Positions 2,303-9,174 of a stretch of 10,446 bases of DNA are shown one piece after another. Position numbers and translations under genes: made by a program. The stretch is from Thermoproteota archaeon (GTDB lineage: Archaea; Korarchaeota; Korarchaeia; Korarchaeales; Korarchaeaceae). The stretch covers positions 1 to 10,446 of the forward strand of contig JAOZFH010000037.1 of the NCBI GenBank assembly GCA_027491415.1, given 5' to 3'. The notes beneath the pieces were generated by a model that saw only the letters and a list, made by a program, of their open reading frames with translations, had not been told where the DNA came from and made no database searches. Each line of letters begins with the position of its first letter. The first letter of the stretch is position 1.

Positions 2303-2352
2303 ACTTTGTGTCGTCGGCAGCCGATGGTCTCCCCTCCAGGGGCTGACCGCAG

Positions 2353-2360
2353 GTTTATTT
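2353..2360 (+). promoter_or_regulatory. Putative TATA box for the SPFH-PPC pair (probably leaderless)
   Basis: GTTTATTT ends 23 nt upstream of the ATG at 2384. Confidence 0.5.
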
Positions 2361-2383
2361 CCCGTGGCACGAGGGCGCCTCAG

Positions 2384-3361
2384 ATGCCTGGCCGGGTTGA
2401 GGTGAAGATCCCAGAGGGGTCTGGCGGGAAGTTCTCCAAAGTCCTCGCGATCCTCGTCTTGCTCGTTCTGGTGGCCGTCTCCGCCAACAGGGTCGTGTTC
2501 AGGGTCGACTTGGGCTACGCGGGGGTCATAGTTGATCCCATCACGGGTTACATCTCACCAACCCCGGTGTTGGGGCCGAGGATCGGCTTCAAGGCCCCGT
2601 GGAGGGTGGTGAAGAACGTCTATGTAGCCACAGACGCCGTCCACATGTGGACTGAATATCAGCAGGCCCTCGTCGGCCGGGGGGAGCTGATCGGCGACTA
2701 TCCGGCCATCGAGACGCTGACCAAGGACGGCCTCCAGGCATGGATAGACCTGACGGTCAGGTGGCATATCAGGCCGGAGTACGCTCCCGCGATCGTGAAG
2801 TCCTACCCCAACCTTGACTACGAGGACAAGTTCCTTATACCGGAGATCAGGAAGGTCGCTAGGGATGTGGTGGCCCAGTACGAGGCCGCCATGATATCTG
2901 AAGTGCGTCAGAGCATAGGATTAGAGATAATGGATCGCCTGCAGAGGAACCTCGACGCTGATGAGAAGGTGGGAGGGGCCTTCGTCATAGACGAGGTCTA
3001 CGTGAGGAACATAAGGCTGCCGGACGAGTTCATGAACGCGATTCAGGCGAAGCTCGCCGCCCAGCAGAGGATGATTGCAGCAGAGTACGAGAGGAACAGG
3101 ACGCTGATCCTGGCCAACGCGTCCGCGCAGGCCAAGATATTGGAGGCTCAGGGAGAGGCGGAGGCGAGGATAATTCAGGCGAAGGCCGTGGCCGACGCCA
3201 TAGACCTGATAGCTCAGGCCGGTGGGAACAGGGAGGCCATCGCCCAGCTATACGTCCTCCTTCAGAATCTGGCCCAGCTGCAGGCCAACGGCACTAGGTT
3301 CATAATAGTCCTCTCTCCGGAGGGCGCCCAGCTCCCCATTCTCTACCCCGTGGGTGGGTGA
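2384..3361 (+). CDS. SPFH/Band 7 (prohibitin/HflC-like) membrane protein
   Basis: One N-terminal TM helix (VLAILVLLVLVAVSA), GFKAPW, AIETLTKDGLQAWIDLTVRW, VYVRNIRLPDEFMNAIQAK and an Ala/Glu-rich coiled coil (AQGEAEARIIQAKA). Start moved from 2306 to the in-frame ATG at 2384 because of the TATA-like box and the non-protein-like upstream extension. Confidence 0.9.
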   Translation: MPGRVEVKIPEGSGGKFSKVLAILVLLVLVAVSANRVVFRVDLGYAGVIVDPITGYISPTPVLGPRIGFKAPWRVVKNVYVATDAVHMWTEYQQALVGRGELIGDYPAIETLTKDGLQAWIDLTVRWHIRPEYAPAIVKSYPNLDYEDKFLIPEIRKVARDVVAQYEAAMISEVRQSIGLEIMDRLQRNLDADEKVGGAFVIDEVYVRNIRLPDEFMNAIQAKLAAQQRMIAAEYERNRTLILANASAQAKILEAQGEAEARIIQAKAVADAIDLIAQAGGNREAIAQLYVLLQNLAQLQANGTRFIIVLSPEGAQLPILYPVGG

Positions 3362-5106: not shown

Positions 5107-5823
5107 TCACTCCCCGCCTAGGGCAGACATAACCACATCGACGGCGAACTTCTCCTCCGGCTGAACGCCCACGAGCCGCCCCTTCGCCACCCACTCCCCG
5201 TCTTCGTAGGTGTAAACCACCGTGTCGGGGACGGCGCTCACCCCCAGCGAGTCGGCGAGGTCTGGGTTCTCCCAAGCCTCCACGGTCTCGGCCTCGATCG
5301 TTTTCGGCACAGCTATGGCGAACTTGTTCGCTAGGAGGACCTGGTGCGGGCAGTAGGGGCAAGTGGGCGTGACGTACACCTGCAGCTTGATCCGCTTGCC
5401 CAGCTCGGTGAGCTTCTTCAGGGCGTCCACCGTGCTCGGCGAGAGCCCGCTCTCACCCTTGGAAGTTAGGATGATGGTCTCGAGGAACGCCCACGCCTCG
5501 TAGCCAGAGGGAGCCCCGGTGTACCGGATGGCCACCCTGTCCGGGCCTATCAGCACCGTAGGCGTCCTCCTTGGGTCTACCCCGAGATCCTCAGCCTCCC
5601 CAAGACTGTTCGTGACGTCGACTATCCTCGGAATCACCTTGTCGCTCAGGTCCGCGATTTCCCGTATTAACTGGGCTGTCCACTGGGAGTACTCGGCGTT
5701 TTGACTGCCGACGACGGTGACGACCTCTACGGGGTCCCTCATCTCGGCTTCGAGCCTAGCCTTTAGCTATGAAGCCGTCTTTTCGTCAATTATTCTGTCG
5801 TGAACGTGCTCGTGGTGTCCCAA
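5107..5823 (-). CDS. Protein disulfide oxidoreductase (PDO; two thioredoxin folds), with an in-frame TAG at codon 19 (readthrough, pseudogene or error)
   Basis: C-terminal unit VYVTPTCPYCP...VEAWENPDLADSLGVSAVP and IRYTGAPSGYEAWAFLETI match the archaeal PDO family. Manual translation upstream of the track's ATG (5742) gives TTG(5823)-GHHEHVHDRIIDEKTAS-TAG-LKARLEAE-MRDPVEV, with GAGGTGAT 3 nt before the TTG. The uninterrupted ORF is 5107..5742. Confidence 0.85.
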
Positions 5824-5826
5824 TAG

Positions 5827-5834
5827 ATCACCTC
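5827..5834 (-). promoter_or_regulatory. Shine-Dalgarno site GAGGTGAT for the TTG start of the PDO gene
   Basis: Minus strand reads cGAGGTGATctaTTG, the same geometry as GGGGGTGATtgtATG in front of POR beta. Confidence 0.75.
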
Positions 5835-6896: not shown

Positions 6897-6921
6897 TTGT
6901 TGATTTGGGAGGTGTGAGTCA

Positions 6922-8160
6922 ATGGCCAAGTCCGTTCAGCAGAGGATGATGTCCCTCAACGGGGATGAGGCAGTTGCATGGGCGGCCAGGCAGAGCAACG
7001 TTGACGTCGTGGCCGCCTTCCCGATAACCCCCCAGACGATCATCATGGAGAGGATCGCAGAGTTCATCCACGACGGACTGATGGACTCTGAGATCATCAG
7101 GGTTGAGAGCGAGCACAGCGCCCTGAGCGCCTCTTGGGGCGCCTCGATCGCCGGGGCGAGGGCTTTCACGGCCACGGCGGCCAACGGACTCGCCCTCATG
7201 TGGGAGATCCTCTACATAGTCGCGTCGAGCAGGGCCCCCGTGGTGATGGCGGTTGTCAACAGGGCCCTGAGCGCCCCGATCAACATCCACTGTGACCACA
7301 GCGACTCCATGGGAGCCAGAGACTCTGGCTGGATCCAGATCTACAGTGAGGACGCCCAGGAGGCGTACGACAACACGATCCAGGCCTTCAGGATAGCGGA
7401 GCACGAGAACGTCCAGCTCCCGGTCATGGTGATGCTGGACGGCTTCCTGATCTCCCACACGATGCAGAACGTACAGATACTCCCTGAGGACGTAGTGTCG
7501 GATTTCGTGGGCTACAGGAAGCCCTCGAGGATCAAGCTGCCCGAGTTCTACGGCGAGAAGGAGATCCCCCTCATGCTCAACCCCAAGTACCCGATCTCCA
7601 TAGGCCCGCTTGACCTTTACGACTACTACTTCGAGCACAAGATGCAGCAGATCGAGGCCATGAAGAGGGCGCCCGAGGTGATCAAGGAGATCCACAAGGA
7701 GTTCGCTGAGATAAGCGGAAGATCCTACGGCGACGGCCTGCTCGACCCATACAGGGCGGAGGATGCGGACGCCCTGATAATGGGCATAGGGAGCACGATG
7801 GGCACCATGAAGGCCGTGGTCGACGAGCTCAGGGAGGAAGGAAAGAAGGTGGGCTCCGTCAGGATCAGGACGTTCAGGCCCTTCCCGGCCGACGAGATAA
7901 GGGAGCTTGCCTCTGGCGTCTCCTCTCTGGGAGTGCTTGACAGGAGCGCCAGCTTCGGAGCGGAGGGCGGGCCCCTGTTCATGGAGGTCAGGTCGGCCCT
8001 CTACAGCCTCAAGGACAGGCCGCCGGTGCTCGGCTACATCTACGGACTGGGAGGCAGGGACATGCCGCCGAGGCTCCTGAAGAAGATCGCCGAGGAGGTT
8101 CTGAGCACCAGGGAGGAGCCGGAGAGGCCCAGGGTGGGCTACCCGGGGGCGAGGGAGTAG
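6922..8160 (+). CDS. porA: Pyruvate/2-oxoacid:ferredoxin oxidoreductase alpha subunit
   Basis: GDEAVA, AAFPITPQT, ESEHSALSA, GARAFTATAANGL, NRALSAPINIHCDHSD, DGFLISH, FRPFP and GLGGRD. RBS GGGAGGTG. Ends in TAG. Confidence 0.95.
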   Translation: MAKSVQQRMMSLNGDEAVAWAARQSNVDVVAAFPITPQTIIMERIAEFIHDGLMDSEIIRVESEHSALSASWGASIAGARAFTATAANGLALMWEILYIVASSRAPVVMAVVNRALSAPINIHCDHSDSMGARDSGWIQIYSEDAQEAYDNTIQAFRIAEHENVQLPVMVMLDGFLISHTMQNVQILPEDVVSDFVGYRKPSRIKLPEFYGEKEIPLMLNPKYPISIGPLDLYDYYFEHKMQQIEAMKRAPEVIKEIHKEFAEISGRSYGDGLLDPYRAEDADALIMGIGSTMGTMKAVVDELREEGKKVGSVRIRTFRPFPADEIRELASGVSSLGVLDRSASFGAEGGPLFMEVRSALYSLKDRPPVLGYIYGLGGRDMPPRLLKKIAEEVLSTREEPERPRVGYPGARE

Positions 8161-8172
8161 GGGGGTGATTGT

Positions 8173-9174
8173 ATGGCTGAGACCAAGTGGGTTCCCAACA
8201 TAAGGCAGATCGCGAAGGAGATGCACGAGAGGGGCTTCACCGGGATCACTCCGGGCCACAGGCTCTGCGCCGGATGCGTGGCCGGAACCATCGTCAGGCA
8301 GGTTATGATGGCCGCCAGGAAGCCGGTCGTCGTCATCAACGCGACTGGCTGCCTCGAGGTGGCCACCACGATCTTTCCTTACACCGCCTGGCAGGTCCCT
8401 TGGGCGCACAACGCCTTTGAGAACGCCGCCGCCGTGGCCTCTGGCGTTGAGAGGGCTCAAGCCAAGCTCATCAGGGACAAGAGGTTCGAGGGAGACCCGG
8501 ACATAGAGATGGACTACGACATCGTCGTCTTCGGCGGCGACGGAGGCACCTACGACATAGGCCTCCAGGCGCTTTCTGGCGCCATGGAGAGGGGCCACAA
8601 GTTCATGTACGTGCTCTACGACAACGAGGCGTACATGAACACGGGCATCCAGAGGTCGGGAAGCACTCCCTTCGGGGCGTGGACCACCACGACACCGGCG
8701 GGCAAGGTCATACCGGGCAAGCCTGTCGGAAAGAAGCCGCTGGTGGACATAATAGCGGCCCACAGGATCCCCTACGTCGCCACCGTCTCGCCCTACTACT
8801 GGAACGACGCTCTCGTGAAGTTCAGGAAGGGATTTGAGGCCGACGGACCGGTGTTCATCAGGGCGTTCTCCACGTGCAACAGGGGCTGGTACAACGCCCC
8901 GGAGGAGTCCATAGCGATCTCCAGGCTAGCCGTGGAGACCTGCGTCTTCCCGCTCTACGAGGTCGTAAACGGGGTTGAGTGGAGGCTCTCACCGCCCAGC
9001 CTCGCCATAGCCAAGAACCCTGAGAAGAAGAAGCCGGTGGAGGAGTACCTGAAGACCCAGCGCAGGTTCAGGCACATGTTTGAGCCCGAGAACAGGTGGA
9101 TGATCAAGCGCTTCCAGGAGATGGTCGACTACGAGTGGGAACTCCTACTGGAGCGAGCCGGACTCAAGGGCTGA
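8173..9174 (+). CDS. porB: Pyruvate/2-oxoacid:ferredoxin oxidoreductase beta subunit (TPP-binding)
   Basis: GHRLCAGC, ATGCLEV, FENAAAVASG, TPP motif GGDGGTYDIGLQALSG...YDNEAYMNTGIQRS, and STCNRGW. RBS GGGGGTGAT. Substrate specificity (POR versus VOR) cannot be proven by eye. Confidence 0.95.
   Translation: MAETKWVPNIRQIAKEMHERGFTGITPGHRLCAGCVAGTIVRQVMMAARKPVVVINATGCLEVATTIFPYTAWQVPWAHNAFENAAAVASGVERAQAKLIRDKRFEGDPDIEMDYDIVVFGGDGGTYDIGLQALSGAMERGHKFMYVLYDNEAYMNTGIQRSGSTPFGAWTTTTPAGKVIPGKPVGKKPLVDIIAAHRIPYVATVSPYYWNDALVKFRKGFEADGPVFIRAFSTCNRGWYNAPEESIAISRLAVETCVFPLYEVVNGVEWRLSPPSLAIAKNPEKKKPVEEYLKTQRRFRHMFEPENRWMIKRFQEMVDYEWELLLERAGLKG

Follow-up and report, generated by a model that had tools for sequence, protein, structure and literature searches.

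Organisation of the locus

The window, a stretch of 10,446 bases, is one whole contig (C15) of a 1.78-Mb assembly in 63 contigs, which is 96.3% complete and 1.1% contaminated. Pfam matches between positions 11 and 10430 give the gene order AdoMet synthetase, DOMON-domain protein (minus strand), SPFH/Band 7 protein, PCC-domain protein, SurE (minus) and protein disulfide oxidoreductase (PDO; minus), followed by the POR gamma, alpha and beta subunits and an HhH-GPD glycosylase (minus). SurE starts 5 nt past the PDO stop codon, so that the two genes are probably co-transcribed. A 614-codon open frame at 6919–8763 (minus), which has no Pfam match, lies antisense to the POR alpha- and beta-subunit genes and is in all likelihood a shadow ORF in a genome of 63% G+C.

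The window's genome (G000) was compared with four genomes of the same genus (G001–G004), the nearest being G004. Close to the 5′ end of the ORF for the SPFH/Band 7 protein (2306–3361), the window has two single-base gaps relative to G004, 25 nt apart at 2341 and 2366 on the plus strand. These represent either a compensated frameshift or gaps upstream of the true start.

For the PDO gene, a mechanical ORF list shows only a 211-codon ORF (5107..5742). A longer minus-strand frame runs from a TTG at 5823 to the TGA at 5109–5107 and comprises 238 codons including an in-frame TAG, its sole interruption (Table 1). The 18 sense codons from the TTG to the TAG read MGHHEHVHDRIIDEKTAS, and the 24 nt between the TAG and the ATG at 5742 hold no in-frame ATG, GTG or TTG. 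The initial annotation had described this arrangement of TATA-like box, ribosome-binding site, TTG, TAG and 238-codon frame, and its coordinates and translation proved exact.

The TATA-like box appears to be placed for transcription to begin a few bases ahead of the ribosome-binding site. In a nucleotide alignment, the block ATAACTTAA(A/T)TA of this region is kept in all four same-genus genomes, and the Shine–Dalgarno-like motif is identical in three of them, with GAGGCGAT in the fourth. More distant family members carry ATG where the same-genus PDO genes have TTG. As all four same-genus genomes retain the box, the ribosome-binding motif and the TTG, the expression signals serve the long form of the gene.

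Table 1. Features of the PDO gene and its upstream region in the window.
Feature	Position	Strand	Remarks
TATA-like box CTTAAATA	5865–5858	minus	putative promoter element, judged by position
Shine–Dalgarno-like motif GAGGTGAT	5833–5826	minus	2 nt upstream of TTG 5823
Ancestral TTG start codon	5823–5821	minus	same place in 4/4 same-genus orthologues
Codons 2–18 (GHHEHVHDRIIDEKTAS)	5820–5770	minus	His-rich tail and first turns of helix 1; separated from the rest of the gene by TAG
In-frame TAG, codon 19	5769–5767	minus	replaces Glu codon (GAG in nearest relative)
Codons 20–27, LKARLEAE	5766–5743	minus	rest of helix 1; 24 nt
ATG of Met28	5742–5740	minus	internal Met of intact protein; start of listed ORF
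Residues 29–238 and TGA	5739–5107	minus	remainder of PDO gene; two thioredoxin-fold units
CPYC redox motif, residues 155–158	5361–5350	minus	C-terminal unit; aligns to CPYC of 1J08, 1A8L and 2HLS

The stretch upstream of Met28 encodes the first helix of the PDO fold

A search of 40 related genomes with the 211-residue protein found a PDO match in 35 of 41 genomes, the window's own being counted, and in all four of the same genus. The stop-to-stop frame round the match spans 219 codons in G000, compared with 240–252 in the same-genus genomes. Translation upstream of the matches revealed a family-wide motif, R-I-I-D-E-K-T-A-x-x-L-K-A-R-(L/F)-E-A-E-M, and the N-terminal stretch is encoded by every family orthologue with a definable start codon (22 of 22). 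Leu20 is invariant across the 23 aligned sequences, while Arg10, Asp13 and Thr16 are nearly invariant. At the Met28 column, the alignment has methionine in most orthologues and leucine in some.

The NCBIfam PDO profile TIGR02187, searched over the genome, matches positions 5134–5784 through one TAG, covering profile positions 2–206 with a score of 175. The long form is matched from profile position 2, and the form starting at ATG 5742 from position 15. An AlphaFold2 model was built for the intact G004 orthologue, the protein of which is 99% identical, from a 22-sequence alignment, and has a mean pLDDT of 93.5 and a pTM of 0.90. In this model, residues 1–8 are disordered (pLDDT <50), residues 14–27 form a confident helix and the first strand spans residues 32–38. 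This places codon 19 within helix 1 and Met28 just past it.

Accordingly, the 27 codons upstream of ATG 5742 are genuine coding sequence for the first helix of the PDO fold. The orthologues, the profile, the structure alignment and the model fully bear out the proposal in the initial annotation that the stop is flanked by coding sequence on either side. A reading of the first 18 codons as an upstream ORF or leader peptide was rejected, as they form a protein N-terminus conserved in 22 of 22 orthologues.

The protein begins with the His-rich tail MGHHEHVH (5800–5823, minus), which is the disordered segment of the model (pLDDT <50). Similar tails occur in related genomes (MGQHEHVH, MGHAHNHS and MGHTHSHSH), and their conservation in kind suggests a metal-binding tail.

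Relationship to structurally characterised PDOs

The intact G004 protein aligns over residues 12–235 to residues 4–225 of Pyrococcus horikoshii PDO (1J08; E 3.5e-31), over residues 18–234 to Pyrococcus furiosus PDO (1A8L; E 9.8e-28), and to Aeropyrum pernix PDO (2HLS; E 2.6e-24). As in these proteins, full-length alignment reveals an N-terminal helix, which is the one interrupted by the TAG here, two thioredoxin-fold units and a C-terminal CPYC. The two tandem units appear in the model of the intact G004 orthologue as two beta-alpha units. Residues Cys155, Pro156 and Cys158 are invariant and Tyr157 is nearly invariant in the 23 sequences, so that the C-terminal CxxC is present throughout.

In contrast with the three solved proteins, which carry CxxC in the N-terminal unit, the protein encoded here has AEYS (5697–5686, minus) at the position of CQYC in 1J08, in addition to the TAG at codon 19. 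An N-terminal CxxC is absent from all 23 aligned family sequences, and the C-terminal CPYC would appear to be the only redox motif of the PDO-like proteins of this lineage. Known PDOs are described, in excerpts of one study, as having a CxxC in each domain, with that of P. aerophilum as an exception (PMC1188242). The intact orthologue scores 178.8 bits against TIGR02187 and the ATG-5742 form 167.7 bits, both under the curated equivalog cut-off of 185; the missing N-terminal CxxC may be the reason for a score just under the cut-off. As a label for the gene product, PDO-like protein with a single CPYC is the most fitting.

Protein and TIGR02187 profile searches both found this gene to be the sole PDO-family match in the G000 assembly, and its frame is interrupted by the TAG at codon 19. 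In the same excerpts, PDO is singled out as a key protein, the presence of which tracks disulfide-rich thermophiles (PMC1188242).

A sense codon stands at codon 19 in every relative

Codons 18–20 read TCA TAG CTA in the window. The nearest relative, G004 (97.6% nucleotide identity), has TCA GAG CTC, while G002 has TCC GAA CTC, and G003 and G001 both have GCC GAC CTA. More distant family members have Gln, Glu, Ala, Val or Thr at this column, which is open in 22 of 22 family orthologues. The orthologue alignment proposed in the initial annotation thus shows a sense codon in every relative, and GAG, GAA or GAC within the genus. The TAG is thus a one-off, single G-to-T change in a conserved Glu codon (GAG).

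Public collections were scanned with a degenerate 26-letter pattern. Two PDO loci were found among six matches in metagenomes, both with GAG, and four among ten matches in genome collections, with GAG, GAA, GAC and GAC; the other ten matches were unrelated and had arisen by chance. The TAG allele was carried by none of these six related PDO loci, in a scan from which the records of the window's own genome were possibly left out.

UAG is a normal stop codon in this genome

The initial annotation had offered amber readthrough or recoding, by pyrrolysine or suppression, as one reading of the TAG. An in-frame UAG within a conserved gene does recall the pyrrolysine decoding of Methanosarcina and its relatives. 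In contrast with that system, no pylS, pylB, pylD or tRNA(CUA) was found here, TAG is a frequent terminator, and the UAG is not conserved. Searches for PylS (TIGR02367), PylD (TIGR03911) and PylB (TIGR03910) gave no match in the 96.3% complete genome; each profile scored above its cut-off in one of 14 control genomes.

ARAGORN reported 39 tRNAs in G000. With the Rfam tRNA model there were 43 matches, of which one scored under the gathering threshold; a further locus found only by ARAGORN brings the total to 44. None of the 44 has a CUA anticodon, the anticodons of intron-bearing genes having been read by eye; as a few tRNAs that a complete set should contain are missing too, a CUA tRNA is probably, rather than certainly, absent. 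A locus reported by ARAGORN as 'tRNA-?(Arg|Pyl)(ccta)' (G000:C30:18773-18868) was considered as a suppressor and rejected, being tRNA-Arg(CCU) with a 17-nt intron after position 37; it supplies the Arg anticodon CCU otherwise absent from the tRNA set.

Two further tRNA genes outside the window also deserve comment. A second 'Cys (gca)' of ARAGORN (G000:C51:2801-2891) is, on inspection by eye, an intron-bearing tRNA-Ala(UGC); at this locus and at G000:C30:18773-18868, ARAGORN mislabels intron-bearing tRNAs. The gene at G000:C51:24585-24688 has a body almost identical to that of tRNA-Ile(GAU), with UAU in the loop as read by eye and then a 29-nt intron, and may be tRNA-Ile(UAU).

Among the terminators of 2277 open frames of at least 200 codons, TAG accounts for 677 (30%), TGA for 1358 and TAA for 242. 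An open stretch of at least 100 codons follows a stop at a frequency of 0.209 for TAG, compared with 0.196 and 0.207 for the other stops. By a codon-usage score, coding-like sequence flanks 31 of 1802 TAG codons (1.7%), 62 of 2236 TGA codons (2.8%) and 13 of 651 TAA codons (2.0%), so there is no genome-wide excess of TAG among internal stops. The test is blunt and missed the PDO TAG itself, the upstream flank of which, 29 codons long and partly non-coding, scored −0.10; it is therefore insensitive to stops near gene starts. Within the window, TAG closes the POR alpha-subunit gene (6922–8160), and the ATG of the following subunit gene lies 12 nt downstream; the orthologous gene of G004 terminates at the same residue. 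In G000, TAG acts as an ordinary stop codon.

Programmed readthrough would leave a conserved stop, and none was found at this codon in the 22 family orthologues or in the two metagenome contigs. Excerpts of a review of archaeal recoding report stop-codon redefinition for Sec and Pyl only, together with one established −1 frameshift (PMC8211752). The PDO gene resembles interrupted genes of Saccharolobus solfataricus, such as fucA1, in being a conserved archaeal gene with a frame interrupted in one strain and full-length in relatives (PMC8211752). Whereas fucA1 has programmed −1 frameshifting, a slippery site and demonstrated expression, the PDO gene has a plain nonsense codon, round which no sign of a recoding signal was seen. 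The PDO TAG adds nothing to the established archaeal recoding cases.

Strain divergence and assembly quality

The window is 97.6% identical to G004 over 10,450 aligned columns, with 241 mismatches and four gap openings, or one difference every ~43 nt. With 241 differences in 10.4 kb, a substitution at codon 19 falls within normal strain divergence. The PDO gene differs from that of G004 at 16 codons, comprising the nonsense change, 13 synonymous changes and two amino-acid changes (pN/pS 0.05). One of the synonymous differences lies in the codon right after the TAG, 5 nt away. The gene has no further defects, as expected if the lesion is very young.

Gene integrity was compared between G000 and a 126-kb G004 contig with 115 coding-like open frames. 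A match in G000 was found for 113 of these, with an identity of at least 80% for 110. A stop or a second frame in G000 marked out ten frames; in nine, the stop precedes an evident start codon, as judged by eye from alignments for three and from short excerpts for six. Conserved coding sequence is broken by a stop in G000 in only one of these 110 genes of at least 80% identity, the PDO gene, and no frameshift was found in any of them. With neither frameshifts nor other internal stops in this set, the assembly is not error-ridden.

The reverse comparison used 158 queries, of which 117 had a match and 110 were at least 80% identical; 13 were flagged and one of these was examined. This gene (L054; G004:C15 ~104167-104928, against G000:C6 81589-82366) has a stop in place of Arg in G004 (…ALTAPGASAL*QTEAPKV…, the asterisk marking the stop), and is open in G000. 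The stop lies in what looks like the final part of an N-terminal signal peptide and may be a nonsense lesion of the PDO kind in G004. Such lesions would affect roughly 1 in 100 genes in both assemblies.

Public read runs were also considered. Among 23 listed runs, the share of sampled words found in any one of them was at most 0.16. Four runs from four studies, compared at 85% likeness, contained only relatives less than 95% alike to the window, and no entry for 5764–5769 appeared among those listed. The contigs per run in the classes 99+, 95–99, 90–95 and under 90 numbered 0/0/2/12, 0/0/2/7, 0/0/3/4 and 0/0/2/0.

Consequences of the stop codon for expression

The ancestral TTG at 5823 would still be served by the TATA-like box and GAGGTGAT. 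As the expression signals are set for this TTG, ribosomes are expected to make an 18-residue peptide and then terminate. The 211-codon ORF from the internal Met28 lacks both its own ribosome-binding site and helix 1, and would be translated poorly if at all. Inspection of the sequence by eye found no Shine–Dalgarno-like motif of GGTG or GAGG type before ATG 5742, and none of the 22 orthologues starts at Met28.

Excerpts of a study of reinitiation report that, after termination, it falls by ~60% at a distance of 13 nt and to about zero at 22–23 nt in Haloferax volcanii, and by 80–100% at 38 nt in Escherichia coli (PMC10666635). These data come from a haloarchaeon and from E. coli, both of other lineages than the present one. 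By analogy, reinitiation at ATG 5742, 24 nt past the TAG, would probably be poor in this lineage too. The PDO gene in G000 would then be a fresh pseudogene, or else a strong hypomorph, that is, a weakly expressed truncated gene.

Origin of the TAG codon

Three readings of the TAG had been put forward in the initial annotation, namely recoding, a recent change of a sense codon to TAG, and a consensus error. The first finds no support, while a recent GAG-to-TAG nonsense change and a consensus error both remain. The explanation preferred here, and regarded as more probable than not, is that the strain truly carries a nonsense allele of very recent origin, either as a mutation or as a variant within the population, and that the gene has thereby become a pseudogene or is strongly hypomorphic. 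On this explanation the change appears to be real rather than an assembly error, and PDO expression appears to have been lost. That the loss of PDO is unexpected must be set against it: the 96%-complete assembly has one copy of the gene, the pN/pS of which is 0.05, and a key role in disulfide-rich thermophiles has been ascribed to PDO (PMC1188242), all of which favours either an artefact or a product that still functions. The main rival, quite possible if less probable, is an artefact of assembly or consensus; the organism would carry GAG, and the T at 5769 (minus) would be a sequencing or assembly error, or else a minority allele of a mixed population that became the MAG consensus. Consistent with this, the window is a whole 10.4-kb contig of a 63-contig assembly, the single-copy gene is under strong purifying selection and shows no second defect, and the TAG allele is missing from all six related public loci. 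Changes of G:C to T:A are, moreover, a common type of both damage and artefact. Against an artefact stand the 110 compared genes without frameshifts or other internal stops, and a contig that shows real divergence from its nearest relative every ~43 nt. Real nonsense alleles are also commoner than consensus substitution errors in short-read assemblies.

A functional product could also be preserved by a shift of the start codon, with enough 211-residue protein, devoid of helix 1 and the His-rich tail, made from ATG 5742 by reinitiation or internal initiation. In favour of this, the ORF after the stop is undamaged, with CPYC retained and a pN/pS of 0.05, the TAG-to-ATG gap is just 24 nt, and no second PDO copy could compensate; a lesion too recent for decay to have set in would, however, account just as well for the low pN/pS. 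Such a shift is nevertheless improbable, in view of the missing Shine–Dalgarno-like motif before ATG 5742 and of reinitiation that, in the excerpts on H. volcanii, is about nil at 22–23 nt (PMC10666635). The lost helix is, furthermore, a high-confidence part of the fold, contains or adjoins the invariant and nearly invariant residues, and is present in solved PDO structures, and no relative starts at Met28. Decoding of the UAG, whether by pyrrolysine, by a suppressor tRNA, or by programmed or near-cognate readthrough in the UAG-C context, is very unlikely. It would fit the coding sequence on both sides in one frame, the C that follows the TAG, and the eukaryote-like release factor 1 of archaea. 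The outcomes named in the initial annotation as refuting it speak against it: relatives have sense codons, no PylS, PylB or PylD match occurs in the 96%-complete genome, no CUA anticodon occurs among 44 tRNA loci, and TAG ends 30% of long open frames with no excess of internal TAGs. The stop is also absent from the 22 orthologues and two contigs, whereas programmed sites are conserved, and the excerpted review reports archaeal stop redefinition for Sec and Pyl only (PMC8211752). Very little credence is given to a real TAG with some full-length PDO made by near-cognate UAG-C readthrough, for instance by tRNA-Gln(CUG) or tRNA-Glu(CUC).

Implications

The nonsense change in the PDO gene is an ordinary finding and calls for no new reading of the genetic code; its significance beyond annotation is little. 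The locus should be annotated as a PDO-like gene with its ancestral start at 5823 and an internal stop, either as a pseudogene or as a suspected error, and not as an intact 211-residue protein from 5742. Should the stop prove to be an error, the case would illustrate why the MAG consensus deserves checking at conserved genes. Near-cognate readthrough, if true, would represent a natural, tolerated case of leaky termination in Thermoproteota, with a eukaryote-like release factor and without a pyrrolysine system. If the stop is real, this strain would be without the one protein credited with driving the formation of cytoplasmic disulfides in hyperthermophiles, and would represent a mildly interesting natural knockout.
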